Assembly: GCA_041649575.1 (NCBI GenBank)
Contig: JBAZMW010000001.1
Span: forward strand, 23,944-87,943
DNA from: Patescibacteria group bacterium
Lineage (GTDB): Bacteria > Patescibacteriota > Patescibacteriia > 2-01-FULL-39-33
Length of the DNA stretch: 64,000 nt
Direction of reading: 5' to 3'
Shown: in pieces, positions 6,990 through 35,449 of the stretch
Layout of the letters: every line of letters starts with the position of its first letter
Numbering within the stretch: the stretch's first letter is position 1
Notes under the pieces: model-generated
Database searches by the model: none
Seen by the model: the letters and a program-made list of their open reading frames with translations, nothing else
Told to the model about the DNA's origin: nothing
Position numbers and translations under genes: made by a program

Positions 6990-7077
6990 TTTTTGCTATT
7001 TTTGTCCAGAACTTCAGCTAAAGTTGAAAAAAACAAATTTTTATGGTAATTTTAAAAACATAACGGTTAATTTTACT

Positions 7078-10000
7078 ATGTCTACTTATAAAGAGTTTTT
7101 AGATGGTGACGGTGAAAAGAAGTGGCAAGACTATTGGGAGCAAAAAAAATTATTTGCGGCCAATGATTTTGACGACCGGCCCAAGTATTATGCCTTGATA
7201 GAATTTCCTTATCCTTCGGCCGAGGGTTTGCACGTAGGTCATCCGCGCAGTTATACCGCGCTTGATATTGTGGCTAGAAAAAGACGGATGCAGGGTTTTA
7301 ATGTGCTATACCCAATTGGTTTTGACGCTTTTGGACTACCGGCAGAAAATTTTGCTATCAAAACCGGGACCCATCCGAAAATTCAAACCGATAAGAATAT
7401 CGACAATTACCGTCGACAACTCAAATCGATCGGTTTTTCTTTTGATTGGGACAGGGAAGTCAATACGACCGATCCCAAGTATTACAAATGGACGCAGTGG
7501 ATTTTTTTACAGCTGTTCAAACACGGCTTGGCTTACAAAGCGGAAGTGCCGATTAATTTTTGTACCTCTTGCAAGGTAGGTTTAGCAAATGAGGAAGTGG
7601 TGGGTGGTAATTGCGAACGTTGTGGCGGTGAGGTGGTCAAAAAGATTAAAAGCCAGTGGATGCTAAAAATCACCGACTATGCCCAGCGGTTGGACAAAGA
7701 TTTAGACCAGGTAGATTTTTTGGAAAAAATAAAAATTCAGCAACGGAATTGGATTGGCAAGAGCGAAGGAGCGGAAGTTGATTTTGCAATTAGTGGTAGT
7801 GAGGAAAAAATAAAAGTCTATACTACTCGGCCGGACACTTTGTTTGGCGCGACCTACATGGTGCTTTCTCCAGAGCACGAGCTGGTACAAAAATTAAAGG
7901 ATAAAATTAGCAATTTTCAGGAGGTCGAAAATTATCTTAGTGAGGCGGCCAAGAAATCTGATTTGGAACGCACTGAACTCAACAAAGAAAAAACCGGCGT
8001 GGAGTTAAAAGGAATTAAGGCGATAAACCCAGTTAATAATGAAGAGATTCCGATTTGGATTTCCGACTATGTGTTGGCCGGTTATGGCACGGGAGCGATT
8101 ATGGCTGTGCCGGCACATGATGAGAGAGACTTTTTATTTGCTTTGAAATATAATTTGCCGATTATCCAAGTTGTTGAATCATCAGATAAACAAGATGTTA
8201 TTAATATTAATATTCATGATGATGATCGGAGCGACACGGTTGAAAAACTAAGATTGTTGGCAATAGATAGTGAGCCAGTGGCACCGACTATACGGCGGTA
8301 TCATTTTTCCACTGAAAAACTAAATTCTTTAATGGATATTTTAAAAGGTAATAAGGTGGGGAAAGAAGATGATTATAAGTTGATAAAAAAAGCAGTTAAT
8401 TTTACTTTATATACAATCGAAGATAAGACGGAGATCGTTTTTACAAAAATATTTACCGGTGATGGAGTACATATAAATTCTGATTTTTTAAACGGCTTGG
8501 GTCTGACAGATTCCCTGGCCGAGATTATAAATTGGTTGGAAAAAAATAAATGTGGTAAAGGCGCTACTATTTACAAACTGCGTGACTGGGTATTTTCTCG
8601 CCAGCGTTATTGGGGCGAACCGATTCCTTTGGTCTTTTGCGAAAACTGCAAGAACAAGAAACAGAAGGCGTTGCTAATTCACGGTTTTGAGGGCACGGGT
8701 GATGGCAATTGGTTTGCTTGGATTAAACAAGAATTAGAGAAAGCTGGTTTTGAGGTATTCAACCCGACGATGACCACCTCGGAGCATCCGGTGTTGGAGC
8801 AATGGTTTGAGGAATTAATGCCGTTTGTCGAGCAGATGGGCGAAGATGATATCATCGTCGGTCACAGCTTGGGCGCTAAGGCGGCTTTGCATTTGATAGA
8901 GAAAGCGGGCAAGAAGTTTAAGGCCTTGTATTTAGTGGCGCCGGTGCTAAATGCGGCTTCTGACAAGGAATATGATTTATTATCTGAAAAATGGCAGGGC
9001 TCGGACATTGATTTATTAAAAAAGTTTTCTTCGGAGCCGTATGATTTCAGAAAGATCAGTGATTTAGTAGAAAGTAAAAATGTTATTTTTTCCGATGATG
9101 ATCCGTATATAAGAGTTGAGTCAAAAAATATTTTGCCGGCTGGTTGGAATAGACAAGTGTGGAATGGTTTTGGGCATTTTCAGAATAAAGAGATTTCCGA
9201 GTTGTTAAATTTAATTTCCAAGAGCAAAAATACCGGCTGGGTGGCTTTGCCGGAAATAGAGTTGCCGTTGGTTTTGCCGGAAATAAAAGAATTTCAGGCT
9301 GGCGACGACGGCGAGTCGCCATTATCCAAAGAAACAAAATGGGTGGCAACCACTTGTCTGAAGTGTGGCGGATCGGCCAAGCGGGAGACCGACACTATGC
9401 CACAATGGGCGGGCAGCTCTTGGTATTTTTTGCGCTACATCGATCCGCAAAATAATGTGGCTTTTGCCGATGAGAAAAAGCTTAGTTATTGGACACCAAT
9501 AGATTGGTATAATGGCGGCATGGAGCATACGACCCTACATTTGTTGTATTCTAGATTTTGGCACAAATTCTTGTTCGACTTAGGATATGCGCCGACAGCT
9601 GAGCCTTATGCCAAGCGTACTAGTCACGGCATGGTTTTGGGCGAGGGTAGCGAGAAGATGAGTAAGAGCCGCGGCAATGTGGTCAATCCTGATCAGGTGA
9701 TCAAGGATTGTGGCGCCGATACTCTAAGAATGTATGAGATGTTCATGGGCCCATTTGATCAGGCGATTCCCTGGGACACTAAGGGCGTGCTGGGCGTGAG
9801 AAGGTTTTTAGAAAAAGTGTGGTTGTTTTTTGGCGATGAGAAAAATATTACTAAAGAGGCTGATGAGGAGCTAGAAAGAGTGTTAAATAAAACAATTAAA
9901 AAAGTAGGCGAGGATATTGAGACGATGCATTTTAATACCGCTGTTTCAGCGATGATGATTCTCGTCAATAAAATAACGGAGAAGAAGTCGGCGACTAAAG

Positions 10001-10326
10001 AAATTTTGGAAAAATTTCTGATAATATTGTCGCCATTTGCACCGCATTTGACGGAAGAACTGTGGGGCCGACTAGGACATCAGAATAGTATCGCTTTGGA
10101 AAAGTGGCCGGCTTATGACAAAGTGTTAATAAAAGATGAGCAAGTGGAAATAGTGGTGCAAGTCAATGGTAAGGTAAGAGCTAAAATTTTGGTGTCGGCC
10201 GATATTTCGGAGGGTGAAGTAGTGGAGTTGGCTGGGCAGAATGAGAATGTTAAAAAATATTTGGAAGGGCAGCAAATTAAGAAAACGGTCTTTGTGCCGG
10301 GCAAATTGATTAGTTTTGTGGTTTAA
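7078..10326 (+). CDS. leuS: leucyl-tRNA synthetase carrying an inserted alpha/beta serine-hydrolase domain
   Basis: Class I aaRS motifs are present: HVGHPRSYTALDIVARKRRMQGFNVLYPIGFDAFGLPAE, KMSKS ('KMSKSRGN') and a C-terminal anticodon-binding region. The ORF track starts at 7024 but MSTYKEF at 7078 is the likely start. At about 1082 aa it is ~230 aa longer than typical because of the insert. Confidence 0.9.
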   Translation: MSTYKEFLDGDGEKKWQDYWEQKKLFAANDFDDRPKYYALIEFPYPSAEGLHVGHPRSYTALDIVARKRRMQGFNVLYPIGFDAFGLPAENFAIKTGTHPKIQTDKNIDNYRRQLKSIGFSFDWDREVNTTDPKYYKWTQWIFLQLFKHGLAYKAEVPINFCTSCKVGLANEEVVGGNCERCGGEVVKKIKSQWMLKITDYAQRLDKDLDQVDFLEKIKIQQRNWIGKSEGAEVDFAISGSEEKIKVYTTRPDTLFGATYMVLSPEHELVQKLKDKISNFQEVENYLSEAAKKSDLERTELNKEKTGVELKGIKAINPVNNEEIPIWISDYVLAGYGTGAIMAVPAHDERDFLFALKYNLPIIQVVESSDKQDVININIHDDDRSDTVEKLRLLAIDSEPVAPTIRRYHFSTEKLNSLMDILKGNKVGKEDDYKLIKKAVNFTLYTIEDKTEIVFTKIFTGDGVHINSDFLNGLGLTDSLAEIINWLEKNKCGKGATIYKLRDWVFSRQRYWGEPIPLVFCENCKNKKQKALLIHGFEGTGDGNWFAWIKQELEKAGFEVFNPTMTTSEHPVLEQWFEELMPFVEQMGEDDIIVGHSLGAKAALHLIEKAGKKFKALYLVAPVLNAASDKEYDLLSEKWQGSDIDLLKKFSSEPYDFRKISDLVESKNVIFSDDDPYIRVESKNILPAGWNRQVWNGFGHFQNKEISELLNLISKSKNTGWVALPEIELPLVLPEIKEFQAGDDGESPLSKETKWVATTCLKCGGSAKRETDTMPQWAGSSWYFLRYIDPQNNVAFADEKKLSYWTPIDWYNGGMEHTTLHLLYSRFWHKFLFDLGYAPTAEPYAKRTSHGMVLGEGSEKMSKSRGNVVNPDQVIKDCGADTLRMYEMFMGPFDQAIPWDTKGVLGVRRFLEKVWLFFGDEKNITKEADEELERVLNKTIKKVGEDIETMHFNTAVSAMMILVNKITEKKSATKEILEKFLIILSPFAPHLTEELWGRLGHQNSIALEKWPAYDKVLIKDEQVEIVVQVNGKVRAKILVSADISEGEVVELAGQNENVKKYLEGQQIKKTVFVPGKLISFVV

Positions 10327-10416: not shown

Positions 10417-11472
10417 TCAGAACCGAAGCAGGAACTGAAGCTGGCCTTGATCTGGCGTCTTCGGCTCCAGCGACCAGTAGTAGCCGGCCTTGACTGACAC
10501 GATGTCCCGATAGAGGAAGACCTCTGCGGTGGCCCCGATGCTGGTGTCGGTTTTGTCCGGGCTGTTTCTGGCTACCTCGGCAGAAGTCACCTGGCCGTTC
10601 TTGCCGACGGAGGTCACGATTTCCGTCCAGTACTTGGGCAGCTGTCGGTTATACATCGCGATTCCAGACAGTTTGGCTTGGCCGTCAAACAGCTCGCGGC
10701 CAAGCAGTAGGTAGCCGCCGACTTGATTGCTGATGTGGTCGTCGCTGTAGTTGGAGCCGTCCACCTCTACGCGGCAGAACCAGGGCTTGGGTCGCCACTC
10801 GAGGAAGCCGCCAAGTTTCAGGAAGTCGTCGCAGACCTGTCCGGTGATGCCCAAGCAGCCTTGATCCAGTTTGCGTTTGAGCATGAATGACGACTCCAGG
10901 CGATCAAACAGCTTGGAGCTGTCGAAGGCCTCACCTGATCGGCCGGTGACATCCCATAGCGCGGTCCAGACATCGCTTTCCCAGCGTAGTTGGACACCAG
11001 GAGCGTAGCTGCTGAAGGGGATCGAGGCGGGAAAGAAGGGCAAGTCCCACTTGAATGGTCCGATGATGGGGTTGCCGAAGCCGCAGGCTAGCGTAAAAAG
11101 TCCGCCGCGTAGTTTCAGCCGGCCATCAAAGCCGATTGGCGTTTCCAGCCAGGCTTCGCGCAACCAATTGCCGCTGGTGTCTTCCTGCAAGTCGGCTAGC
11201 TCCAGTACCAGGCCGAAGGCCATCTGGCGGCCTTGGAGCTTGGTGTTGATGCGGGTCATCTGCCAAACAGCGTCGGTGGCGTTGTCTTGTAGTTTGATGA
11301 CCCCGCTAGTCCAGCCCCAGGTGGTCCAGGTCCAGTCGTCGTCCAGTTGAACGGGCGGAATCAGCCGGAGCTGTTCGGGCAGGTTCTGGGTTGGCGCTTT
11401 GGCGGCTTCCTCGGCCCAGACCGGTAGGGTTATTGTAACTGCCAAGATCGAAATCATTCTCACGTACTTCAT
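10417..11472 (-). CDS. secreted aromatic-rich beta-barrel/OMP-like protein of foreign (GC-rich) composition
   Basis: It has a signal peptide (MKYVRMISILAVTITLPVWAEEA). It is W/Y/G-rich and ends in '…LQFLLRF', a terminal Phe typical of an OMP beta-signal. The gene's GC is visibly far above flanking DNA. Confidence 0.5.
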   Translation of the reverse strand: MKYVRMISILAVTITLPVWAEEAAKAPTQNLPEQLRLIPPVQLDDDWTWTTWGWTSGVIKLQDNATDAVWQMTRINTKLQGRQMAFGLVLELADLQEDTSGNWLREAWLETPIGFDGRLKLRGGLFTLACGFGNPIIGPFKWDLPFFPASIPFSSYAPGVQLRWESDVWTALWDVTGRSGEAFDSSKLFDRLESSFMLKRKLDQGCLGITGQVCDDFLKLGGFLEWRPKPWFCRVEVDGSNYSDDHISNQVGGYLLLGRELFDGQAKLSGIAMYNRQLPKYWTEIVTSVGKNGQVTSAEVARNSPDKTDTSIGATAEVFLYRDIVSVKAGYYWSLEPKTPDQGQLQFLLRF

Positions 11473-12035
11473 GGCGCTTCTCCTTCTTTGGTTAAGGCTC
11501 GAGCTATAACTCTAACAACCCTCTGAGCCAGCATATATTCTGAGCAGCTAACCCAGAGGCTATCGGCAACGATGATGTTACTGCCATTTCCGACCAGCTG
11601 GAAGCTTAGTTGTATTCCTCCGTGCTGATATTGCGAGGTGCCAGTTATCAGCTTGGCATTCACTGGCAAGGTTGTACGGTTTTCCCAGAGATCATTGGCC
11701 TCTTTGTCGTTGAGGTAGGAGACTTCGGCGTTGGCCTCTCTCAACTGATTGATGATTGCTGTCTCGACAGCTTTCGCCGTCTCATGTTGCGGGTCGCTCT
11801 CATTGCTGGCTCGGATTACCACCAAGAACTGCTGACCCTTTAGAGCGGCGAGTTGGCGTTCTTCTATTCTGGCCTGCTGGCAGTGGGCTTCATACAGGCA
11901 GTAGGCCAAATACCCGATACCCACCACAGCCGCGCTGGCTAGGATAGCGCCCAGTGTCGCAGCACTACCTAGCAGCATCCATTTGTATTTCTGGTTCATG
12001 ATTCTGTCTCTCCCTCGGGTTTTCAAGGTTCGCAC
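11469..12035 (-). CDS. N-terminally membrane-anchored hypothetical protein (GC-rich island, 4-nt overlap with downstream ORF)
   Basis: The likely start is MNQKYKWMLLGSAATLGAILASAAVVGIGYLAY (TM anchor). No known domain. It shares the atypical composition of the neighbouring ORF. Confidence 0.45.
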   Translation of the reverse strand: MRTLKTRGRDRIMNQKYKWMLLGSAATLGAILASAAVVGIGYLAYCLYEAHCQQARIEERQLAALKGQQFLVVIRASNESDPQHETAKAVETAIINQLREANAEVSYLNDKEANDLWENRTTLPVNAKLITGTSQYQHGGIQLSFQLVGNGSNIIVADSLWVSCSEYMLAQRVVRVIARALTKEGEAP

Positions 12036-20623: not shown

Positions 20624-23600
20624 ATGAATCCAGGAGAAGGAACAAAAAAGATAACGAAAAATCTATTTAACAAGGTGATAGTGGTTGGTTTTTTGTTAAG
20701 TTTTTTTATTCCAGCTTTGGTTATAGCGCAGGAGGTTGTTCCAGGAATTAGCGGCGTTAATGTGGCGGATGTGCACGATGAAAATGCTTTTAGGGTGGCT
20801 ACGGAAGGAGGGGGAGATGCTGTGATTACTTGCAATAATTTTGTCGCTGGCGGTTTGGCAACATCCGGAGATATAGCCGCTTTAATTAAATGTATAGAAA
20901 GCGGGACTAAGGCGCAAAACAAAACGGTTGACAAGAATACCCTCAAGCAACTCAAGGCCTTGGAACAAAAGCAGCAGCGTGAAGAATTGTTCAGTAAAAT
21001 GAAGGATGAGCTGAAAAAGAGCATGGCCGGCGCTTTTAAGACCATGCTACGGCAATTTTCCAAACAATTGGCTTATGACACGGCCGTTTGGGTAGCTTCT
21101 GGCGGCAAGGGGCAACAGCCGCTGTTTATGACCGAGGGTATCGGCGCTTATTTGCGAAATCAGCTAGATAATGCCCTGGGTGTGTTTTTGGACGAACTGG
21201 GCCGCTATTATGGCGTGGATGTCTGTACGCCAAATTTCCAGATTAGAGCGCTCCTGCCCGGTTATTTGGGCAGACCACAGGTGAGTGTTCGCTGTTCTTT
21301 TACTAAAATGATCAGTAATTGGCAGAGTGCGGCCCAAAATGCCAGCTTTGCCGTGGAGTACAGAAGATTTTTGAGGCCAGGAGAAAATGATATTTCTTCG
21401 CTACTAATGATTAAAACCGGTTTGAGCAACAAACTAGACCAAGAATTAAGAGATAGCGTTTTAAATGTTTTATCGAAAGATGGCTGGAAGGATGTTAAAG
21501 ATTTTGCCGGCTGGGTTTTGACTCCGGGCACCATGGTGCGCAAGGCCACCGAAAACGCCATTGATCCCCAAAATACTTCGATAGCGGACTACACCTATAC
21601 CGATACACTCTGGGATTTTATCGAAACTTTTTTGAACACGCTGACGGGAAAACTCTTAGAAAATTTAATGACTGGCTTTTTCAGCTCCGGCGGCAATACC
21701 CAAAATTTCACTACCGGTAATTCAAGCTCCAGTTTATTTAATCCTTTGGCGCAACCGTTTAGCGAGGGCCAAGAAGGAGCACAGGAAAGATTTCTGAGTC
21801 TGGTGGAGGGAAGTTTGCAGGTGGGCGGTGTTTACGATATTTTGAACAAACTGACCCAATGCCTGGATTCCAGTAAAAGCAATTTAGGGCCGACAGACTG
21901 TGTTATTGATCAGGCCCTGGCTCAAGCCATAAGAGAAAAAAAATTAGTCAAAGATTTATCCGCGGATATTTTAAATCGTCAGTTCGCTCCCTCTATCTCG
22001 GCCAACATCAATCCGCAGACAGTTTTTACCTTAAGAAATATTGTTATCTTGAGAAAATATCGAATCGTGCCTGTTGGCTGGGAAGTCGCCGCCAAACTGG
22101 TCAATGAAAAAGCCAAACAAATTTATACTTTGCGTCAGTTGATGGAGTGTTATAACGGCTGTGATCGTTTTGGCAAAGAAGAGGATTTTTGCGGCAATCC
22201 GGCCGTGGAAGACACCAGTAGCTGGTGCCGAGGACTGGTTGATCCCAACTGGGTCTTAAAGGCGCCGGAACTATTCTGCCGGCGGGAAGGATACGGGATC
22301 GAAAGCGGCGCCATTGATTCCCAGAACAGTGTCAGTCGGGATAAATATTGCGCCGACGAACAGCAATGCATCAAAGAAGATGAAAAAGGCAATTGTTTGG
22401 CCTATGGTTATTGCACCAAAGAACGCCGGACTTGGGATTTTAATTCTTCCACCTGCGACCCGAAATTCAACACTTGCTTTAATTTTAAATCGCGAACGGG
22501 AGCTGCCAACGCTTATTTGGCCAACACCCTTGATTATAGGGATTGCGACGCTCAAGTGGCTGGTTGTCGTTGGCTGGCTACGGCTTTGAATCCGGTTAGT
22601 AATTATTGGTTGAATCTAACCTATAAAACGAACGAGCTGGGCAAACCCAAGGAAGTCTTAAAGACCTGCAATAATCCTCTGGGTTGCGAGGTGACGGGAG
22701 CCAGCGCAGCTGCCGCTGTGACTTATGGCCACAACATTAGCCCCGATGCCAAAACGATCCTTTCCCAGCCCTGCAATAAAAGCGCCGGCTGTTCTTACGA
22801 AACCAGTAAGTGCACCATTCCTAACGGTGGCGTCACTTGTTCGCCAATAAAAGCAGCTTGTGACGGCCAAAATAATATTTTGGCCGGTTATAATGGCAAT
22901 TTTGCCAAATGCGCCTCTTGGAATGCGGAAAAGTGGGAAGAGGGCTGGGGCGGCTCGGAGAATAATCACCACGCTTGCGTTACTGGTGTTGGCGTGACCG
23001 GCAGTGGCATCAAAGACGACAAGGCCCTGGCCAGCTATACCCTGGGCCAGCAGGTAAGCTCGGCCTTAAGAGACATCTCGGTTGAGCCAAATAAAAAATA
23101 CATTCTGACTTTTGAAGCCAAGAAAAGCGCTCTGGATGCTTATGGTGGAGTTACTAGGGGTTCGGTTGCTGTCAAAGTGGAGTTTACCGATACCAGCGGC
23201 AAGAAGACCGATCAAGGAGTTGTCTTGGCGGCCGATGATTTGAGCGATACTGGTTATCGGACTTTTACTATTGGCAATATCAATAACGGTAATAATGACA
23301 AGTTTACCATCAAAGTGACGACCAACGCCGGTTCTTATGGCAGTTTCTATTTTGATGAATTTATTTTGCGGGAGGTGACGGAGAACTGTTTTGAGACCAA
23401 CCTGGTTTTGACTAATGGCGTTCAAACGGAAGACGACAGCAACAAGGAAATTTATTTTGACCGCGACATTCAGTCTTGCGACGCCAAAGACGAGGGCTGT
23501 AGCCAATTTATTCGCACCAAGGCCGGGTTGGGCAGCAACTTAATACCCAACAGCGGTTTTGAGATTGATGCTGGTGGCGATAATAAACCGGATGGCTGGG

Positions 23601-26600
23601 TAGAGAGAGGGCTGACCAATATTAGTCTGGACACCAACGATAAATATAAAGCCAAGATAGTTTATAGCGCCGAAGGATATGATAAATATCCACTGATACC
23701 GGTAGAGGCCGGCGAATATTATGCCATTTCCTTTGATGCCGCTCAAGCTATTAGTGGCAACAATGACGAAGCTGATTTGGAAATGATTTTTTTGAACAAG
23801 GAAGCGGACGCGATTATTGGGGCAACCGGTATAAAAATCGACAAGACAAATTGCGCCCAGACCGGAGACAACACCATTACTTTGAGAAATTTGCCTGCAA
23901 ATATGAATATGCAGAGGCAGTCTTGCTACTTTTTGGTGCCGGCCGGGGCCAGAGTTATGGGTTATAAGCTGTTTTCGGCCACCGCCAGTGGAGTTAATTT
24001 TATTGACAACATAAAATTGGAAAAAATAAATTATTTCAGCTTGAACGCCTCGGTTTATACACCCTATACGCCTTCGGAACGACCAGTAAGCCAGTTGGCT
24101 TTTGTCAAAAAGGCTCCTGCTTATTACGGCTGTTATAAAACCGGCAGTCTTTGGCCGCAGAGCGAGACTGAATTGGAAAGAGTTTTGCTTGGCCGCAGTG
24201 CGGCCTGCGCTAATTTTGCCAGCGTTTGTATCAGAGATGAAGTTGGTTGCGAACGTTATAGTCCGCTAAATAAGGATCCGGCAGTGCCGGGCAAAATCAA
24301 CGCGCTTAATATCTGCCCGGCGGAGTGTGTCGGCTACCAGCTGTATCGCAAAGAGAAAACTTATTTCGAAAGCGTAAGCTACGAAAAATTCATTGCCGAC
24401 AAAAAACCGCAGTATTGCTCGGCCGCTTACGCCGGTTGTGATGAGTTTACCAATTTAGACGAAGTGGCCAAGGGCGGCGAGAGCAGGGAATACTATTCGC
24501 AACTGCGCGTTTGTCAGCAACCGGCCGCCGACGCCAGCGATGCCACTTATTACACCTGGGAGGGCAGCGACACCACCGGCTATCAGCTAAAAACTTATCA
24601 GTTGAAAAAAAGTCAGACGGACAGCTTTGATACTAATGCTCCCTGCACTGTTTTGGATTATCCGGCCAGTTTAAATGGCAAGAACCAGTGTAATGACCTG
24701 AAAGATGACGGAACCAACAGCGTTGGTTCGGTTTCATTGCCGGCCGGCTACAGTAGTCTAAAGGGTTATTTAACGGTTTTACAGGGTTATACCGATACCA
24801 GTAGCAGCGATCCGAATTTACCCACTATTGTTAACTCGGGAATTTTGGACGAGTTGCACGAGTTTGGCATCTGCGCCAAACAAGAGCTCAACGGCATCGT
24901 TTACAATCGAGGCACGATGGATGATGCCAGTGACGATATTTACATTTATGCCAATGCCGATTGCCGCGAGTTTTATGATGGCAGCGGCCAAGTCCATTAT
25001 CGGCTGCTTTCCAAGGCAATCTTTTCTTCCAGCGAGTGCCATCCTTATCGTCGCAGCCAGGTTCAGACCGATACGGCCGAAGCCCAAGCCGATTGCCGAA
25101 ATTCCCAAGGCTATTGGAATGCTAACGGAGAGTGTATTTATATGGCGATACCCGGCCAGGGAAAGACTTGCCCTGCCAGCGCCAAGGGTTGCCGTCAATA
25201 TGTCGGCAATCAAGGCAACAACGTCCGTTTGAAGTTTTTTGATAATTTTGAGAGTAATCTGGGCGCCTGGCAAGGCGGCGGTGTTCTGGCCATGGAAGCC
25301 ACTAATCCGGGAGGCAAATCATTAAAGAAGGCGGGCGGTGGCGAGATTAGCCGGCCGGTTGCCACAGTCAAAAATAAGGCTTATATCTTAAGTTTTTGGG
25401 CCAAGGCTTCGGCCGACGCCGTTGTGCTGGATGCAATTAAATTTAAAGGAGCGGAAAATAACTCCGACAATTATTTTGCCGAAAGCGACAGCGACGCCGA
25501 CAATATCCCGCAAGCAGTTTTAAATACCACTTGGCAGAAATATGACTTAGGTCCGGTTTTTGTCACTTGGGACGAAAGAGCCGACGAAGCGCTAGAAATC
25601 AAAGCGCCGGCCGGAGTCGATGTCTTTTTTGACAACATAATTCTAAAAGAAGTTCAGCAAAACGTTTACCTGATCGCCAATACTTGGTTTACGCCTTTTG
25701 CTTGCGATAACATACTGGAAACACCCTTTGGGTCAGCCGGTGATTCCAATAATCCGACTCGTGACAGCCAAGGAGAGATGCTCGGCTGTCAGGCTTACAA
25801 TGATCGATCCGATCAACCCTGGTATTTGAAATCATTTTCCAGATTATGCCGCGAAGACGCTGTGGGTTGCGAGGCCTTAATTAATACCTTTAACTCCGAT
25901 TCTCCTTGGGGCAAGGAATTTAATAACGAAGACTTGGAAACGCATGATGACGTGACGGTCCAGAGCGATCAGGCGGTCTATTTGGTCAATGACAATCAAT
26001 ATGCTTGTCAGGCCGAGGATAAGGGTTGCACGGCTTTCGGCTTGCCCAGCGTCACCAAGTATGACGAAACAATAGGTTACAGCACTGTGTATTTGGAAAA
26101 CGTTCCTGACCGTTATAGCTTTGATCTGTGCCGTTACCAAAATTTATGGTGCGAGGAATTCTCCAGTGCCGATGCCCGCGAACTGTCTTATTTTAAGGAT
26201 CCCAGAGACAAGCTGTGCGAGTACACCGCGATTTCCGGCAAGAATTACAGCAACTGGTATGCCAAAGGGACTAATAATCCCTGTCTGACCACCGCCACGC
26301 AAACGATTGGTCTGGGTTCGGCCGATGAGAAGCGGCAGCCAATCGGCTGGTATGACAATAAAACAGAGACGGAGGTGGCGGATTATAAGGGTTGGGCCGG
26401 CCTGTGTCCGGCCGAGCAGAGCTCTTGCACCGAATATATCGATCCGCTGACCGAGGTTTATGAGGGTCTCTTTAATAAGGAGGAAAACAGTTTCAAAAAC
26501 TGTGCCGGCGAAACTCCAGGAGCCGAGCAAAACAATTGCGGTTATTATGTGTTAGAACTGGAGGACGAAAATCTTTATACCATCTCGATCAAGAGAACCA

Positions 26601-29600
26601 GCTCCGGCAATGTCGCCACCCAGCTAGTTTGCGATAATGAAATTTGGTCGCCGGATAAGAGTTTGGATGTGTCTGGCTCTAGTAAATTAATTTTAAACAG
26701 AGACAACGTCGGCGGCGATAAGCAGGTTAGCGGTAGATTTTATCTGGAAAGTACCGGCGCCGGCCAGGCCAGAGTCAATTGTCGCATTTACGATCCTGGT
26801 TTTGACGGCGAAGAGATCGAAGTGGTTAAGGCCGGGGTTTATTATCAATTGGCCAAAGCGGTCAATCGCGCCGCCTGCAACGGTTTGGTGGATATAGATA
26901 GCGGTTGCGTTTTGTTCAATGAGAGAGGAGAGATGAATTACTCCAAGCAGGGCGTGGAGAGAGTCCGCGATTATCTTGACTTTGACGCCGATGAAACTTT
27001 CAATTTGCAAATCAAAGCTGCCAGTAAAAATCCACAGCCGCCATTTTCAGCGATTTTGCCAGGCCAAAAAAATTCTAATTCGATCATTAAAGTGTCGCCA
27101 GACAGGGAATGCAGCGGCTGGCTGTTTTGCACCACTTACGAAAAAGCCAATCCCGAAGATACGGATTTGGCCTTTGGCAGTCAGGATAAGTGTTTGGAAA
27201 TAGGCCTCTGCAGTCGCTTTGATAGCAAGGGAAATTGTTTGAAATATTCGCTGGGCAAAAAAGAAGCCCTGTCTACCAGCACCCCCGATTTTCAAAACTT
27301 AACGGGATACTCCATCAGCGGTTATTACCCGACAGATCTGATGGAACAAATCGGCAATGCGGCCAACTTGCCCAATGGTAATTTTGAATCAACTTACTCG
27401 GGAACCAAAGAACCTCTTGGCTGGTATATCGGCGGCAGTCATTATGATTCGGACAACATCAAACAGCCAGGACAAGTCAGCGGCTGGGGCGATTATCGTT
27501 TTAGCATCGAACGGGATTCTGCCAATCGTAGGGAAGGCTCTGGTTATTTAAAATTAAACGGAGCCTATGAGGCCGAATCGGAACTGGTAGATGTTTTCCC
27601 CAATGTTGATTACACTATTTCGGCCTGGGTAAACACGCTTAACCTGCAGCCCACTTCGACGCAAGCGGAAATTCTGGTCAGGGAGCTAAACGCCAGTGGC
27701 AATACTATAAAAAATTCCAACTGCTCGGCCGTGGCCGGCTGTTATGAAGTCAAAATCAATGGCATCTCCTGGTCTTTGTATGGCGGACTGAAATTAAAAG
27801 CCGGCCAGCCCTGGCTTAGAGTCAACCAGCGGATAAAAACTATGCCGGAAACTTCAAGATTGCAAATTAAACTGTTAAATTTTCTTAGTAGCCAGGATTA
27901 TGTAAATTGTCGCGACCAGAACGCAGCCACCTATTGCAAAACGGGGGGCTACACTTTCTTTGACGATTTACAGATAAACGCCGCCCTGAAAGTTAATGAC
28001 AAAGAGAACATAAAAAGAGACTGTCGCGCTTATCCCGAGCAGGATTCATTGGCCTGTCGGTATTTCAAAGATAATCAGTTTTTTTATGGCTGGTCCGGCT
28101 ACTGCCTGACTTATGATCCGCTAAACTCTCGTTCCTGTCTGCAGTGGTGGCCGGTCGACAATATAAAAGGGGAAGTGGAGGACGAGGTTTCCGGTTATGA
28201 CAACAGAGTTCCTTTGTATTATTGTCTGTTAACCGAATTTGAAAGAGAATTGAAAGAAGTAAGTACCGATGTGATACAGGTTCAGGAAGCGGTCGGCGGC
28301 GCTATGCCGGTTGCCTCTCAGGCCCAAGGAGTGGCGGGAACAATTTTGGATTTTTTAGAATTCATTCTTAATATTGTGGGCGATGTCTTTCTGGGCGGAA
28401 CTAATAGCGGAACAATCATAACCGACCTGATAGCCGGCGGCTTGCAGACTTTTGCCGGCATTGATGTCGGGTCGAGCGGCTCTTCGTCTTCAAAATCGAA
28501 TATGCCTCAATGCGAAAGACTAAGCTTTGAGGATTTGAAATTCGATCCGACCACAAAAAGCTTGAATTCCTGGGTTGCCAGTATCACCGGGAATAATTCC
28601 AGAAACGTCGATGCCAAGTATCTGAAGCCGATAAGTTTGTATAATGTAGTCTATATCACCCTGGATACCGGCTATGGCGGCGGCGGCGGCGTGGAATGCG
28701 AAGATCAGGGCGGGCATAATTTACAAAAAGTAAAATACACGGAAAATTTTATTCTTAGAGGTCTGTATAAATTGGTTGTCGGCGGTACTAGCAGTATAAC
28801 TACCGAAGATTATGGTTATGTTTCTCCTGGCGATGGTACGGCCGGCCTGGATTATAGCGACAAGACTTATTGCGCGGGTTTTGTGACCTTTTTTGACAAA
28901 GACGAGAACGGTCATCGCAAAGGAGAAATAAAAAACATGATAGCCTGCGCTCAGGATACAGGGGAGTACACCCATCAGGACACCTTTAACTTTAAGTTTA
29001 AGATAGGCTACATGACAGACAAGCAGGGCCCGGCTTGCCAAATATTGGCTCAAGTGGTGACTCCGATGGGCAATAACAAGGCTTGGAGCAGAAGGGTGGC
29101 CAAGGGCAGTATTTTCACTATGCCTGGTCTTGGCACTTCGTATAATTCCGATTATCCTCCTTATGGCGCGGTGGTGCCGCCGGAGCCGGCGCATTATCCC
29201 GAGGTTTGGGATACCGACTTAACTCAAAAAGATAAGCAAAAATTATATCATTCCGCGCCGGAACTGGAAAGCCAAAAGCCCTATCAGGCCAGGGCGGGAG
29301 AAGTGTTTAGTTGCGTCAATTATGTCAATGATTTGCCAGGTTATGATGGAACAATGGGAGCGTTAAGAAGTATTTTTGGAGTCGCTTCCAGCTGGGCTTA
29401 TAAGGTGCCTTGTTTTGAGGGCTGCCTGAAAGGCATCAGAACCGACAATGCCTGGCAGGGACTAACTTCCATAACCCAGTCGGTGCTGTGTGTTTGGAGA
29501 CATTGCACCAACGCCTGCAATTTCATCGGCCGTTGCAGTCAGTCGGGCAGTGTTTGTGTCAACTACAACGGCTTTGGCGATGATATTTTGGGTATTGATT

Positions 29601-32221
29601 CGCTCGACGAACAGTCCATGCCTTGCCCGATTTCCGGAGAAAAATGCGTTAGCATCTCTTTGTGGAAAATGTTGAACCAAAACGGAGTACCGACCTGGAT
29701 CGACCAGGCAGCCATTAGAAACAGTTCCAGTTTCATAAAACGACTTTTCGCCAAAAGTTATGGAGTCTGGACCTGGGCCGGCGATGGGGTCGGCTACAAG
29801 AAGACCGACCAATATAATTGGGATGTTCCGGTCAGGCAGTGCGAATTTCACGGCGTGCCAAATGTTCGTCCTGATCCTCAAAATAGCAGTATCAACGAGA
29901 TAATTACCGGCTGGTTTGATCTGAATTTTGAAAAAAACCCAGCCACCGTGGCGGATTGTGATTGGGGCAGCGCCTGCTTGGAGCCGGCCGGCTGTGATTG
30001 TCATGGACTGTGCACGGTGCCCAACGGACAACGAACCTGTGAGTATCCCAAAAATCCGGATTATTGCGGGGTGGCTCCGGTTATCAATAATATCAGAGTG
30101 AACAAGAAGGTGGAGGTGGATGTAAACGGAGTGAATTTGTCAAATACGCCGGTTAAAGTCAGCAACAACAGTAACGTGGAGCTGGAGTTCAACGCGACCT
30201 TGGATCCCGAACAGTTGCCGCTCTCGGCTTACCAGGTTGATTGGGGAGATTACAAGCTCTCTTATTCCGGCATCGAGCTAAGAGACCGCTCCAATATCAA
30301 AAATAAATTCAAACTCTATCATTATTATAGTTACGAGAAGTTGTCCAAACAAAACACCGGTCTTGATGAGATTTATTGCGACGGAGACGCTCTGCCGCAG
30401 GATCCAGCGGTAAGTCCGCCGGTTCTGACCGTTGCTTCCGGAGAATGCTGGCTAAAAATAAAAATTCAGGTGCGCGATAATTGGGGCTGGTGCAACGGCA
30501 GTGATAGCGCCAAAGGTTTTCATGTCAGCAGCGGCAAATGCGGTTCAGACGAGGCCTGGAGGAATTTTGGCCGCTGGGTGGTGGTAATAAAGAATTTCGA
30601 AGACCTCGATGTGGAAGAAGATAAAGAGCTAAATAATGACAGTGATCTGGATTTAGCTTTCACGCCCTATAATGGTATTTGTGAGCCGGGAGAGGATATT
30701 AATACCGAGCCGGCCTGCCCCCTGACTTCGGGCGCCAGTTTTTCTTTGAGGCACAATACTATGAAAAGAACTATCAGCACCAATCCGCAACTTGATGAAT
30801 ATTGGTATTTTTCCACCGGTCAGGGTGAGGATATAACTAAAATCAGGAATTTAAGAATCAGGGCGATCGGAGTTTTAAATTCCAAGCAATGGGAAATAGA
30901 TGATCAGGTTGTGAAGAACGGCGCGAGATTTAATTTGGTTAAAGTCCCCTACGAGGTGCAGAAGAATTGCGAGGTCAAACGGCTCAGCGCCGTAGAGGAG
31001 CCGACACTAGGGGACGGCGATTGTGTTTACATCGAAAGCGAGAGACTAGCCGCCGGCGCCTCCGAAAGCGGCCAGATTTGGGACACCGCTCTTTATAGCC
31101 CGCAGTTGTTCACTTACCCGTCAATATTAGAATATGACTACCAGTTTAAAAGAGAAGGCCAGATAGAAAATCCGCCAACTGTTTTTAAGCTTCATGGAGA
31201 GAGGACTTTCTATCGTGGCACGGTGATTACTTTAGAGGAGAGAGACGACGACGGCACCATTAAGAGCGGCGCCAAATATATAGATGTTGACACCGAAGCC
31301 TGTGATTCCGTATTCTGTGATTTAAAGCAAGGTTCGGCTAATGGTTTTCATGTTTGTGACAATCAGGGAGATTGTTCTGTCAACGCTTGCGATGGTCGGT
31401 GGGACGATAAGGATTTGATTTACAAAACCGTCTGCGAGCTCTTTGGCACGGATAGCCACTGCCGGCCAGAGTGTTCTTGCGAACAGGGTTTTCAGGCCAA
31501 AACATCCGCCGATGGCACTTGCGTAGATTGTTCCAGTGGCCAAAGTTGCGGCTGTCCCAGTTTCCAGTGCTGGAATTCTTCAAGCAAAACGTGCGAACCA
31601 TGTGGCCTGAAGCTGATGGGCAGATTCGCTCTGGAAGAAGCCGTTAACACGGCCGTTGTCGGGGCGACCGCGCCCAATACCGACGGCCGGCGAAATTTGA
31701 CAGTCAAAGACAAAGACTCCAATTTTATCCAAGAAGGCGATCCAGACGCTCTACTTTGCTTCCAGCTGGTGAAGATAAAAAACAGCTCCGGAGCAGAGCA
31801 AAGCAGTTTTACCAGAGATTTGCAAAATGGCGATATTGTCACTCTGTTTACTCCTTGGGGCTGCGTGCAAGAGGCCGGTAATGATTACGTGGTGGGCGCT
31901 GGGAGCGGTTGTCGCGAATTCAAAGTTGAAGGCAGCCCGGTTTTTTCCAAGGGCTCGACTATGACTCTAAAAGATGGCAGCAGTTATTGGGATGCCGATA
32001 TAGCCGGAAGTGGCAAGATAAGTAAAGGCAGCTTAAATACCTTCAAAGTCGGTGATTGCAGCGACGGCAGCTTTGCCTTGGCCAGTTCTGAGTGGCGTTT
32101 GGCCAGCGGCCGCGTGGCGGGAGCGAGCGAGAGCGGAGCCGGATCGAGGCTGGGCCGGCTGGAAGGAGCTTTGGCTGATTTGTGGAACAATTTTTCAAAA
32201 TTAGTGGCCAGAGTATTTTAG
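20624..32221 (+). CDS. giant (3865 aa) cysteine-rich cell-surface protein with multiple CBM4/9-like beta-sandwich modules (putative adhesin)
   Basis: It is an uninterrupted 11.6 kb ORF with an N-terminal signal/TM anchor (KVIVVGFLLSFFIPALVIAQE). There are hundreds of Cys. Recurrent modules read 'N(L/G)xPNxxFE…GW…' (e.g. NLIPNSGFEIDAGGDNKPDGWVERG; FFDNFESNLGAWQGGG; LPNGNFESTYSGTKEPLGWYIGG), typical of carbohydrate-binding CBM_4_9-like domains. The C-terminus is an EGF-like Cys-rich region. Confidence 0.75.
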   Translation: MNPGEGTKKITKNLFNKVIVVGFLLSFFIPALVIAQEVVPGISGVNVADVHDENAFRVATEGGGDAVITCNNFVAGGLATSGDIAALIKCIESGTKAQNKTVDKNTLKQLKALEQKQQREELFSKMKDELKKSMAGAFKTMLRQFSKQLAYDTAVWVASGGKGQQPLFMTEGIGAYLRNQLDNALGVFLDELGRYYGVDVCTPNFQIRALLPGYLGRPQVSVRCSFTKMISNWQSAAQNASFAVEYRRFLRPGENDISSLLMIKTGLSNKLDQELRDSVLNVLSKDGWKDVKDFAGWVLTPGTMVRKATENAIDPQNTSIADYTYTDTLWDFIETFLNTLTGKLLENLMTGFFSSGGNTQNFTTGNSSSSLFNPLAQPFSEGQEGAQERFLSLVEGSLQVGGVYDILNKLTQCLDSSKSNLGPTDCVIDQALAQAIREKKLVKDLSADILNRQFAPSISANINPQTVFTLRNIVILRKYRIVPVGWEVAAKLVNEKAKQIYTLRQLMECYNGCDRFGKEEDFCGNPAVEDTSSWCRGLVDPNWVLKAPELFCRREGYGIESGAIDSQNSVSRDKYCADEQQCIKEDEKGNCLAYGYCTKERRTWDFNSSTCDPKFNTCFNFKSRTGAANAYLANTLDYRDCDAQVAGCRWLATALNPVSNYWLNLTYKTNELGKPKEVLKTCNNPLGCEVTGASAAAAVTYGHNISPDAKTILSQPCNKSAGCSYETSKCTIPNGGVTCSPIKAACDGQNNILAGYNGNFAKCASWNAEKWEEGWGGSENNHHACVTGVGVTGSGIKDDKALASYTLGQQVSSALRDISVEPNKKYILTFEAKKSALDAYGGVTRGSVAVKVEFTDTSGKKTDQGVVLAADDLSDTGYRTFTIGNINNGNNDKFTIKVTTNAGSYGSFYFDEFILREVTENCFETNLVLTNGVQTEDDSNKEIYFDRDIQSCDAKDEGCSQFIRTKAGLGSNLIPNSGFEIDAGGDNKPDGWVERGLTNISLDTNDKYKAKIVYSAEGYDKYPLIPVEAGEYYAISFDAAQAISGNNDEADLEMIFLNKEADAIIGATGIKIDKTNCAQTGDNTITLRNLPANMNMQRQSCYFLVPAGARVMGYKLFSATASGVNFIDNIKLEKINYFSLNASVYTPYTPSERPVSQLAFVKKAPAYYGCYKTGSLWPQSETELERVLLGRSAACANFASVCIRDEVGCERYSPLNKDPAVPGKINALNICPAECVGYQLYRKEKTYFESVSYEKFIADKKPQYCSAAYAGCDEFTNLDEVAKGGESREYYSQLRVCQQPAADASDATYYTWEGSDTTGYQLKTYQLKKSQTDSFDTNAPCTVLDYPASLNGKNQCNDLKDDGTNSVGSVSLPAGYSSLKGYLTVLQGYTDTSSSDPNLPTIVNSGILDELHEFGICAKQELNGIVYNRGTMDDASDDIYIYANADCREFYDGSGQVHYRLLSKAIFSSSECHPYRRSQVQTDTAEAQADCRNSQGYWNANGECIYMAIPGQGKTCPASAKGCRQYVGNQGNNVRLKFFDNFESNLGAWQGGGVLAMEATNPGGKSLKKAGGGEISRPVATVKNKAYILSFWAKASADAVVLDAIKFKGAENNSDNYFAESDSDADNIPQAVLNTTWQKYDLGPVFVTWDERADEALEIKAPAGVDVFFDNIILKEVQQNVYLIANTWFTPFACDNILETPFGSAGDSNNPTRDSQGEMLGCQAYNDRSDQPWYLKSFSRLCREDAVGCEALINTFNSDSPWGKEFNNEDLETHDDVTVQSDQAVYLVNDNQYACQAEDKGCTAFGLPSVTKYDETIGYSTVYLENVPDRYSFDLCRYQNLWCEEFSSADARELSYFKDPRDKLCEYTAISGKNYSNWYAKGTNNPCLTTATQTIGLGSADEKRQPIGWYDNKTETEVADYKGWAGLCPAEQSSCTEYIDPLTEVYEGLFNKEENSFKNCAGETPGAEQNNCGYYVLELEDENLYTISIKRTSSGNVATQLVCDNEIWSPDKSLDVSGSSKLILNRDNVGGDKQVSGRFYLESTGAGQARVNCRIYDPGFDGEEIEVVKAGVYYQLAKAVNRAACNGLVDIDSGCVLFNERGEMNYSKQGVERVRDYLDFDADETFNLQIKAASKNPQPPFSAILPGQKNSNSIIKVSPDRECSGWLFCTTYEKANPEDTDLAFGSQDKCLEIGLCSRFDSKGNCLKYSLGKKEALSTSTPDFQNLTGYSISGYYPTDLMEQIGNAANLPNGNFESTYSGTKEPLGWYIGGSHYDSDNIKQPGQVSGWGDYRFSIERDSANRREGSGYLKLNGAYEAESELVDVFPNVDYTISAWVNTLNLQPTSTQAEILVRELNASGNTIKNSNCSAVAGCYEVKINGISWSLYGGLKLKAGQPWLRVNQRIKTMPETSRLQIKLLNFLSSQDYVNCRDQNAATYCKTGGYTFFDDLQINAALKVNDKENIKRDCRAYPEQDSLACRYFKDNQFFYGWSGYCLTYDPLNSRSCLQWWPVDNIKGEVEDEVSGYDNRVPLYYCLLTEFERELKEVSTDVIQVQEAVGGAMPVASQAQGVAGTILDFLEFILNIVGDVFLGGTNSGTIITDLIAGGLQTFAGIDVGSSGSSSSKSNMPQCERLSFEDLKFDPTTKSLNSWVASITGNNSRNVDAKYLKPISLYNVVYITLDTGYGGGGGVECEDQGGHNLQKVKYTENFILRGLYKLVVGGTSSITTEDYGYVSPGDGTAGLDYSDKTYCAGFVTFFDKDENGHRKGEIKNMIACAQDTGEYTHQDTFNFKFKIGYMTDKQGPACQILAQVVTPMGNNKAWSRRVAKGSIFTMPGLGTSYNSDYPPYGAVVPPEPAHYPEVWDTDLTQKDKQKLYHSAPELESQKPYQARAGEVFSCVNYVNDLPGYDGTMGALRSIFGVASSWAYKVPCFEGCLKGIRTDNAWQGLTSITQSVLCVWRHCTNACNFIGRCSQSGSVCVNYNGFGDDILGIDSLDEQSMPCPISGEKCVSISLWKMLNQNGVPTWIDQAAIRNSSSFIKRLFAKSYGVWTWAGDGVGYKKTDQYNWDVPVRQCEFHGVPNVRPDPQNSSINEIITGWFDLNFEKNPATVADCDWGSACLEPAGCDCHGLCTVPNGQRTCEYPKNPDYCGVAPVINNIRVNKKVEVDVNGVNLSNTPVKVSNNSNVELEFNATLDPEQLPLSAYQVDWGDYKLSYSGIELRDRSNIKNKFKLYHYYSYEKLSKQNTGLDEIYCDGDALPQDPAVSPPVLTVASGECWLKIKIQVRDNWGWCNGSDSAKGFHVSSGKCGSDEAWRNFGRWVVVIKNFEDLDVEEDKELNNDSDLDLAFTPYNGICEPGEDINTEPACPLTSGASFSLRHNTMKRTISTNPQLDEYWYFSTGQGEDITKIRNLRIRAIGVLNSKQWEIDDQVVKNGARFNLVKVPYEVQKNCEVKRLSAVEEPTLGDGDCVYIESERLAAGASESGQIWDTALYSPQLFTYPSILEYDYQFKREGQIENPPTVFKLHGERTFYRGTVITLEERDDDGTIKSGAKYIDVDTEACDSVFCDLKQGSANGFHVCDNQGDCSVNACDGRWDDKDLIYKTVCELFGTDSHCRPECSCEQGFQAKTSADGTCVDCSSGQSCGCPSFQCWNSSSKTCEPCGLKLMGRFALEEAVNTAVVGATAPNTDGRRNLTVKDKDSNFIQEGDPDALLCFQLVKIKNSSGAEQSSFTRDLQNGDIVTLFTPWGCVQEAGNDYVVGAGSGCREFKVEGSPVFSKGSTMTLKDGSSYWDADIAGSGKISKGSLNTFKVGDCSDGSFALASSEWRLASGRVAGASESGAGSRLGRLEGALADLWNNFSKLVARVF

Positions 32222-35200: not shown

Positions 35201-35449
35201 ACTAGCAGAAGCGAGGCAGGCGGTGTCGGGCCGGGCGGCGCTTTGCAGCCTGATTTGCAAAGAGAAGCGGCTGCCAACGCCAATTTTTTCAGGTTGCTGC
35301 AAAGCTTGAGAGAAATCGAAAAAGGCGTAGCTGGCTTGGGGGACAAAGAAGCAAAAGATGCTGTCGGCGTGGTGGTCGGGCTGGGGTCAGATCCAGTGCC
35401 TTTGGACGCCCAAGTGACGGCCGAGACTGTTAAAAATTCTTTAAGTTAA
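32258..35449 (+). CDS. VirB6/TrbL-like polytopic membrane protein with long Gly-zipper and coiled-coil C-terminal region
   Basis: Signal peptide, then 7 or more TM helices in the first ~370 aa. The 'GWRIVRDICNNFFIVILLV' region resembles the TrbL/VirB6 core. This is followed by Gly-zipper segments (GAAVHGAGGAALGATIGGVAGGVIGI…) and a charged C-terminal domain. Confidence 0.5.
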   Translation: MTVRRKKLILIITVVLFLAGIFLLSSNISFAQETNSDSNINGNISSDSDVEADTNINADYNPKPAENAGAPANDGKIAGFINWILYYVASFFGWLVGLIVNVLVNKVVVFNDFLNVRLVKEGWRIVRDICNNFFIVILLVIAVGTILRVPNYQYKQLLPKLLIMAVLINFSKMITGVLIDFFQIIMVFFGGALVKENAAGVILASVGLYKLYLLGQNPGGQILGNENLQDWDITIALFFAIVISIVACVAIGVTMIILVYRIVMLWILVILSPAAYFLSSFPKGQQYAGMWWSQFASNLVVGPVLLFFLYLSFFSGYRDVGGVENTRGGTVTIPSSATTPEELKKSAKEARTDTGQKGYITGSTNSLMATDQGFFDYLIIIALMIAGLAVAQKAGAAGGQWAGKGVASLQKWGKRAAKLPLGAAKYTAKETGRKVAGILSYETKSGKRLPFIGQWAGDIKTKMEDDIVKRRTAIMKKIGMGDKTKEWIAGKKEDFKKARYQVSGRLVQAPVGAAVHGAGGAALGATIGGVAGGVIGIMTANPLLALGGAKAGAWIGGAMGGFGGILGGLGKKPLQFTVKAAELDTKTVKNAKRKADALNDTTVPVGGTDESGLIEARSSWKNTGAYIGAGGILSKENKKMLDNINDDGLAHLSQAIDAEIDPTKKSDLKEAFTKMLAAYKKGGGSNLSTIQSFLGGGRNVLGISETAHMDPLIAANKVDVASRRTGTEKFREQRGDLKVARFSHLKDNTEAGVDFRDLFEGNSELLSQIKAQQPDFDISQSGIHIEGKEMTQKVSQAMAVLIDKELASLSHNSAIASTGQKEQIGRRMGTLRTAREQLTSGRLQQLQLWNSGLENETGEAATTIFHERIHKAGVKSEVKAEEGARFIRERHLAGLHEEIAREMVAMEGERGGDDYTMDEVMARVKEKHGTKDKVKRLIAREQEAGVAPGKTGAKEPKPTKTITEAPELERAIQELTEALTKTSRSEAGGVGPGGALQPDLQREAAANANFFRLLQSLREIEKGVAGLGDKEAKDAVGVVVGLGSDPVPLDAQVTAETVKNSLS

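Follow-up and report, generated by a model that had tools for sequence, protein, structure and literature searches.

A stretch of 64,000 nucleotides from a Patescibacteria group bacterium (contig JBAZMW010000001.1, positions 23,944 to 87,943 of the forward strand; the whole stretch analyzed is hereafter called the window) contains a leuS gene whose product, a leucyl-tRNA synthetase (LeuRS), carries a complete serine hydrolase of the RBBP9/YdeN family, with an intact Ser-Asp-His triad, nested in its zinc-binding ZN-2 module. The nested enzyme is apparently still catalytically active, judging from the conservation of its active-site residues among homologs (see below). Both protein families are already well known, and the proteins concerned are present in public databases with automatic Pfam labels, named, where a name is given, either 'leucine--tRNA ligase' or 'hypothetical protein'. 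The nested architecture is undescribed in the literature that we searched: our full-text searches yielded no account of a LeuRS with an alpha/beta-hydrolase, NUDIX or Ham1 insert. The features on which this finding rests, in window coordinates and all on the + strand, are the following.

7078..10326, +, leuS gene, starting at the ATG at 7078, 1082 amino acids (aa); encodes the host of the insert, a leucyl-tRNA synthetase of bacterial type
8638..8649, +, first Cys pair of ZN-2, CENC (C521/C524), directly upstream of the insert; both residues invariant in a 49-sequence LeuS alignment
8650..9234, +, RBBP9/YdeN-family (PF06821) alpha/beta serine hydrolase, 195 aa (aa 525-719), delineated by Pfam, phmmer and a structural model
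8680-8685, +, oxyanion-loop HG (H535-G536), placed by the register of the hydrolase family
8866-8868, +, nucleophile Ser597, in the GHSLG elbow
9100-9102, +, triad Asp675, in the DDDP motif
9175-9177, +, triad His700, in the GHF motif
9355..9366, +, CLKC (C760/C763), the other Cys pair of ZN-2, on the 3' side of the insert, placed by the same 49-sequence alignment

The first-pass annotation of this DNA had proposed a full Ser-Asp-His hydrolase of the YdeN/RBBP9 type within leuS, and Pfam, the PDB matches and the domain model all agree with that assignment. The PF06821 (Ser_hydrolase) match has an E-value of 6.4e-17 and a score of 62.4 bits against a cut-off of 22, includes 153 of the 172 model positions and spans aa 550-718 of the 1100-aa open reading frame (ORF), which correspond to aa 532-700 of the 1082-aa protein; the weaker Pfam matches of the insert are to generic alpha/beta-hydrolase families. 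When the insert was compared with the PDB sequences using phmmer, the sole significant matches were Bacillus subtilis YdeN (1uxo, E=1.3e-10) and human RBBP9 (2qs9 and 9fcr, E~7e-8). The GHSLG, DDDP and GHF motifs align with GHSSG (Ser75), DDP (Asp138) and GHF (His165) of RBBP9, respectively, and Ser597, Asp675, His700 and the H535-G536 dipeptide are invariant in two alignments of the hydrolase domain. The AlphaFold2 model of the domain alone has a predicted local distance difference test (pLDDT) score of 91.4 and a predicted template modeling (pTM) score of 0.89. The seven top Foldseek matches of this model are RBBP9 (9fcr, 2qs9, 7oex) and YdeN (1uxo), with E~1e-13, and YdeN superimposes on it with a template modeling (TM) score of 0.87 and a root mean square deviation of 2.0 Å. 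Other alpha/beta hydrolases follow at E=2e-9 or weaker, that is, about four orders of magnitude behind RBBP9 and YdeN. All structural neighbors of the model are alpha/beta hydrolases, and neither these neighbors nor Pfam revealed homology of the insert to the editing or trans-editing families of aminoacyl-tRNA synthetases (aaRS), namely CP1, YbaK/INS, AlaX/ThrRS-N2 and DTD.

The insertion point can be defined to the residue. In the phmmer alignment with the LeuRS of Thermus thermophilus (Tth), the 195 extra amino acids fall exactly between residues 442 and 443 (GVVPVPEEELP...), with CENC aligned to ..HCEAC442, so that the ZN-2 knuckle is split between CENC and the GW..PE segment and both Cys pairs are retained; in the 49-sequence alignment, C760 is invariant and C763 is at least 90% conserved. 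The ZN-2 module is specific to bacterial and mitochondrial LeuRS, and mutation (Cys-to-Ala) of either of its Cys pairs in a bacterial-type LeuRS abolishes aminoacylation (PMC4005665). Because both pairs flank the insert, a loop of this functionally important module hosts the hydrolase with the ligands undamaged. The initial annotation had placed the insert next to a 'leucyl-specific segment', and this is a mislabel because the flanking CENC and CLKC motifs are the Cys pairs of the Cys4 module ZN-2. The leucine-specific domain itself is missing here: in the alignment to Tth LeuRS, residues ~581-636 of the latter have no counterpart and query residues 874-878 are contiguous (region 9640-9670, LeuS aa ~870-880), and the compact LeuS relatives (800-805 aa) likewise lack this domain. 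The interval originally given for the insert, 8665-9235, was essentially right, the boundaries found here being 8650-9234, and all the peptides quoted in its support lie within the single ORF 7024/7078..10326 (+).

Apart from the insert, the protein looks like a complete, editing-competent bacterial-type LeuRS as far as motifs and predicted fold can tell. The ORF delimited mechanically extends from a TTG at 7024 to 10326 (+; 1100 aa), and the public gene call is the 1082-aa protein. The product matches TIGR00396 (leuS_bact) with 999.7 bits (E=1.1e-300) against an equivalog cut-off of 548.4, and Pfam recognizes tRNA-synt_1, the PF13603 editing domain and Anticodon_1, with PF06821 between them. 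The remaining landmarks of the host are as follows.

7231..7242, +, HIGH signature, here HVGH (aa 52-55); H52 and G54 invariant in the 49-sequence LeuS alignment
7744..8205, +, CP1 editing domain (PF13603), Pfam E=8e-64
8188..8460, +, another lineage-specific insert of ~90 aa (aa 371-461), following CP1, opposite a gap relative to Tth 364-376
9655..9669, +, KMSKS signature (aa 860-864), directly after ..GMVLGEGSE
9862..10209, +, anticodon-binding domain (PF08264), Pfam E=3.3e-24

The CP1 domain, which is inserted after ZN-1 (the ZN-1 cysteines are present), contains the T-rich motif TTRPDT at aa 249-254 and the catalytic editing residue Asp348 within AHDERD; T250, R251, P252, D253, T254, H347 and D348 are all invariant in the 49-sequence alignment. 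The AlphaFold2 model of the full-length protein (mean pLDDT 82.6, pTM 0.77) superimposes on the LeuRS-tRNA structures 2bte, 4aq7 and 5omw with TM scores of 0.77-0.83 (normalized to the target), and the hydrolase region is confidently folded inside it. The second insert, aa 371-461, occupies the position of the NUDIX domain in relatives and is predicted to be helical, with pLDDT below 50. It has no Pfam match, and the idea that it is a decayed NUDIX found no support in BLASTP, which detected no similarity to the NUDIX insert of the relative P0009.

The architecture is recurrent. A search with the full-length protein retrieved many LeuS proteins, of which those with a named source belong to Patescibacteria (Falkow-, Magasanik- and Buchananbacteria), and the precomputed Pfam lists of these relatives include PF06821. 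An exhaustive phmmer search with the insert against 1.84 billion cluster representatives yielded 1698 matches; the 11 top matches all reside in long LeuS proteins at comparable positions, and next come free-standing proteins of ~190 aa with ~40% identity. Among the best 150 of these 1698 relatives, 45 copies of the domain occur in proteins with LeuRS motifs. A scan of GTDB (one genome per species, using two peptide patterns, so that all counts are lower bounds) identified the domain inside an ORF with LeuRS motifs in at least 65 species loci (65 of the 80 among the matches listed), at ZN-2 in at least 58 and after CP1 in at least 4 of them. The insert is recurrent in LeuS of the candidate phyla radiation (CPR), for which a survey had been suggested at the outset. 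A single-sequence, word-indexed search with the insert returned two free-standing hydrolases and no LeuS, which reflects the limited sensitivity of this search and not absence of the architecture.

The informative titles of the GTDB records are mostly patescibacterial and include Magasanik-, Uhr-, Buchanan-, Morani-, Falkow- and Paceibacteria. About half of the records are titled 'uncultured Gammaproteobacteria', an unconfirmed label that we suspect to be a placeholder. Two loci with archaeal titles (L039, Woesearchaeota, and L049, Methanosarcinales archaeon) encode a LeuS with the bacterial-type RQRYWG motif and the hydrolase at ZN-2; transfer of the entire composite gene between domains, or else mis-binning, may account for this. 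Two other hydrolase-bearing LeuS proteins (P0022 and P0028) have an additional C-terminal region of ~159 aa after the normal ...VNIV end.

The catalytic residues are conserved among orthologs. All 67 complete LeuS-nested copies from the GTDB genomes retain Ser, Asp and His, with 28-58% identity to the query; among the cluster representatives, Ser is retained in 45 of 45 copies, Asp in about 43 and His in 44. The HG oxyanion motif is kept in essentially all nested copies. As for the hosts, KMSKS is present in all 80 full-length hydrolase-bearing proteins and the CP1 motifs in 77 of the 80; of the 74 hosts that carry the domain at ZN-2, 70 have retained the two Cys pairs of that module.

The insert is absent from all solved LeuRS structures and from the closest compact LeuS proteins, in agreement with the lineage-specificity proposed for it. 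The two LeuS proteins that are most similar to the query core (P0009 and P0011; 83-85% identity over the N-terminal catalytic part, 81-83% downstream of the insertion point) cleanly lack it, and the hydrolase-bearing LeuS are more distant from the query core (54-76%). Because the nearest LeuS relatives do without the hydrolase, it is an accessory module of the synthetase. The original observation stands, given that the insert is not found in typical LeuS and that its triad is conserved.

As read from the sequences, related LeuS proteins carry the RBBP9/YdeN domain at three sites: directly before the TTRPDT motif of CP1 (P0040, P0161 and P0135, the latter with two tandem copies, aa 23-411), directly after CP1 (P0138, P0140, P0141, P0153, P0159 and P0176) and at ZN-2. 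One protein (P0004) possesses two copies, a degenerate one after CP1 (aa 370-552; GTSAG, no HG) and an intact one at ZN-2 (aa 629-812). Furthermore, LeuS proteins host other enzymes: a NUDIX domain (PF00293) is nested after CP1 in P0009, P0011, P0020 and others, a Ham1-like NTP pyrophosphatase (Ham1p_like, PF01725) is nested before CP1 in P0140, and P0020 contains an aminoglycoside-nucleotidyltransferase-like segment (PF10706). Altogether, such nested enzymes were seen in P0009, P0011, P0012, P0018, P0020, P0046, P0050 and P0090, and also in P0092, P0123-P0125, P0128, P0140 and P0213; several of the LeuS combine two or three guests, P0012 reaching 1536 aa. Every nested copy of the hydrolase with a classifiable host is found in a protein with LeuRS motifs (the 45 representatives and the at least 65 GTDB loci). 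No other aaRS was recognized among the long matches read from the best 150 relatives, a negative result obtained without a motif test for other synthetases.

Many free-standing RBBP9/YdeN proteins (~185 aa) exist in CPR bacteria and DPANN archaea. All of the top 120 matches of a broad profile are free-standing, and therefore provide no further test of host specificity. In one case (L082, 4825-5388), the tRNA-modification genes tgt and queA immediately precede the gene of a free-standing homolog; in another (L084, 5001-5558), a leuA-like gene (HMGL/LeuA_dimer) lies ~1.3 kb upstream of it. Either location may be a coincidence. The only characterized close homolog, RBBP9, is a serine aminopeptidase that requires a free alpha-amine, favors aromatic N-terminal residues and has been trapped as an acyl-enzyme with Leu/Ile, Phe, Tyr and Trp (PMC8866121). 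According to the authors of that work, the bonds that it may cleave at these residues are of the amide, ester or thioester type (PMC8866121).

The explanation that we tentatively favor, by analogy with RBBP9, is that the insert is a tethered hydrolase that would act, independently of any particular geometry, on diffusible hydrophobic aminoacyl substrates with a free alpha-amine. The domain probably originated from one of the free-standing CPR/DPANN RBBP9/YdeN genes. The bond hydrolyzed would most likely be, as in RBBP9, the acyl bond of a hydrophobic amino acid with a free alpha-amine, and the candidate substrates are peptide N-termini, aminoacyl esters and comparable small aminoacyl compounds, which would be attacked in diffusible form and not as a precisely docked tRNA 3' end. 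In one version of this scheme, leucine would be released from peptides beside the synthetase of an amino-acid auxotroph; in another, stray aminoacyl esters or adenylates would be cleared. A tethered hydrolase is preferred over editing in cis because the intact CP1, the three insertion geometries and the dispensability of the domain in the nearest relatives all weaken the latter; given that relatives carry the domain at three places in LeuRS, its precise placement with respect to the synthetic and CP1 sites cannot be essential. Several observations weigh against this explanation. The same loops hold NUDIX, Ham1-like and nucleotidyltransferase-like domains, and LeuRS may accordingly tolerate guests in general, the hydrolase being a passenger with no relation to it. 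No consistent gene neighbor was seen for three free-standing homologs (TGT/QueA/SHMT, LeuA/DHO_dh and TopA/efflux, respectively), Tyr99 and Glu108, which bind the alpha-amine in RBBP9, have no obvious counterparts in the variable lid of the insert, and the neighbor-joining domain tree behind the suggestion of independent captures has long branches and no support values, and is only indicative.

The possibility that a housekeeping RBBP9/YdeN gene was fused into a permissive loop of an essential, constitutively expressed protein, with no coupling to leucine or tRNALeu, is somewhat doubtful in itself, yet nearly as likely as a tethered hydrolase. Such a passenger would fit the variety of enzymes hosted by the CPR LeuS loops (PF00293, PF01725 and PF10706), the presence of the hydrolase at three LeuRS sites, which suggests that the loops are permissive, its patchy presence among close relatives and the abundance of free-standing ~185-aa versions in CPR and DPANN. 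It fits less well with the restriction of all classifiable hosts to proteins with LeuRS motifs, in the 45 representatives and the at least 65 GTDB loci alike: CP1 linkers of a similar kind exist in the paralogs IleRS and ValRS, and neither synthetase was recognized as a host in the reading described above, which involved no motif test. Selection for the association would, moreover, be expected to lead to repeated capture of the domain by one host at different sites. The proposal made in the first-pass annotation, a novel editing or deacylase add-on, would have the insert hydrolyze mischarged aminoacyl-tRNALeu or non-cognate aminoacyl-adenylate in cis and make it the first proofreading site built on the alpha/beta-hydrolase fold. 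Editing in cis is chemically attractive: RBBP9 chemistry could attack bonds of the type found in an aminoacyl ester with a free amine, the hydrophobic side chain being suitable and ester cleavage being considered possible (PMC8866121); in addition, the association is with LeuRS, two of the three insertion sites are CP1 linkers beside the editing domain and the triad is conserved. Nevertheless, the CP1 motifs are intact in the query and in 77 of the 80 hydrolase-bearing hosts and, accordingly, there is nothing for the hydrolase to replace; three insertion points imply three geometries, which are hard to square with docking of the CCA end; the closest LeuS relatives lack the module; and no hydrolase-fold domain is listed among the aaRS domain superfamilies tabulated in AARS Online, the single domain compendium checked. 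Both the three-site pattern and the presence of unrelated enzymes in the same loops speak against an editing site that is exactly placed in cis; we consider this proposal, thus weakened, and editing of tRNA in trans likewise, to be unlikely.

A bolder form of the coupling idea, rather unlikely in our estimation, is that the nested domain is an aminoacyl-ester or aminoacyl-adenylate hydrolase that works with LeuRS and was repeatedly recruited in the ultra-small CPR genomes, and would then be the first quality-control or channeling module with a Ser-His-Asp alpha/beta-hydrolase fold; together with the NUDIX and Ham1 guests, it would turn LeuRS into a self-cleaning multi-enzyme platform. Two further readings are effectively excluded. 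A non-catalytic pseudo-enzyme serving as a structural, tRNA-binding or protein-interaction platform could be envisaged given that human RBBP9 was originally described as a binding protein and that the second copy in P0004 (aa 370-552) is degenerate; it is nonetheless very improbable in view of the retention of the triad and the HG motif in essentially all nested copies despite identities of 28-58%. The probability of an artefact or a mobile element, that is, an assembly chimera, read-through of adjacent genes, an intein or another selfish insertion, is negligible. The guanine-cytosine (GC) content of the 5' half of the insert is 0.46-0.48, compared to 0.31-0.41 in the segment just upstream, but other parts of leuS are equally GC-high. 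A window artefact is unlikely because two public contigs, among them ENA ERZ27247363 (116 kb), encode exactly the same 1082-aa protein, and, furthermore, the in-frame architecture at the same residue boundary is common to at least 65 species and there are no stop codons. An intein, already discounted in the initial annotation, is rejected: the insert has no Hint, LAGLIDADG or HNH match in Pfam, and it runs from KNKKQK to SKNT, with Lys at its start, Thr at its end and Gly following. Around 8650 and 9234, neither target-site duplications nor terminal repeats were detected, only short chance repeats.

If the hydrolase is coupled to LeuRS, it could represent new proofreading chemistry or substrate channeling in organisms that are unable to make their own amino acids, and would provide a way to approach the function of the RBBP9/YdeN family, which is poorly understood. 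If, instead, the hydrolase is a passenger, the surface loops of CPR LeuRS would be a hot spot for the nesting of whole enzymes, of use in protein engineering and in the annotation of CPR genomes. In either case, the finding concerns some of the best-catalogued enzymes, the aaRS, in which accessory domains have repeatedly revealed editing, signaling and complex formation.

Elsewhere in the window, leuS is followed by two adjacent ORFs (10417-12035, -; 351 aa and 188 aa) with a GC content of 55-60% in surroundings of ~40%; neither has a Pfam match, and the first starts with a signal-peptide-like sequence. The pair is not an artefact of the window because the same two ORFs follow leuS on an independent public contig (L081), and it may be a horizontally acquired island. 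Farther downstream, a giant ORF of 3865 aa (20624-32221, +) is followed by an ORF of 1063 aa at 32258-35449.

Compared with known systems, the nested domain is closest to RBBP9 and YdeN, with which it shares the compact alpha/beta-hydrolase architecture of ~185-195 aa and the order of the HG, G-H-S-x-G, DDP (Asp) and GHF (His) motifs. The known members of that family are free-standing, whereas the query domain is nested in another enzyme, and, unlike in RBBP9, the alpha-amine residues Tyr99 and Glu108 are not clearly conserved. The host resembles the LeuRS of T. thermophilus (1h3n/2bte/2byt) and Escherichia coli (4aq7/4arc) in its HIGH and KMSKS signatures, ZN-1, ZN-2, CP1, anticodon-binding and C-terminal domains; it differs from both in that ZN-2 is split by 195 aa, ~90 aa are added after CP1 and the leucine-specific domain is missing.

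The proofreading modules of aaRS include CP1 (LeuRS, IleRS and ValRS), INS/YbaK (ProRS), the editing domain of AlaRS and ThrRS, AlaX and DTD. Like these modules, the insert is a hydrolase joined to a synthetase, with an aminoacyl ester as a possible substrate class; unlike them, it has no homology to any of these domains and no fixed position in LeuRS. To our knowledge, none of these proofreading modules is built on the Ser-His-Asp alpha/beta-hydrolase fold. A precedent for a small enzyme joined to a class Ia aaRS, judging by the title of the model, is NCBIfam NF040702 (isoleucine--tRNA ligase, N-acetyltransferase domain), in which, unlike in the query, the guest is a GNAT enzyme and the host is IleRS. 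A further parallel is offered by the CPR LeuS proteins with NUDIX, Ham1-like or nucleotidyltransferase-like guests (P0009, P0011, P0012, P0020, P0140 and P0213), which share the host clade and the loops with the protein described here; these guests, often found alongside the serine hydrolase, differ from it in being nucleotide pyrophosphatases or transferases.

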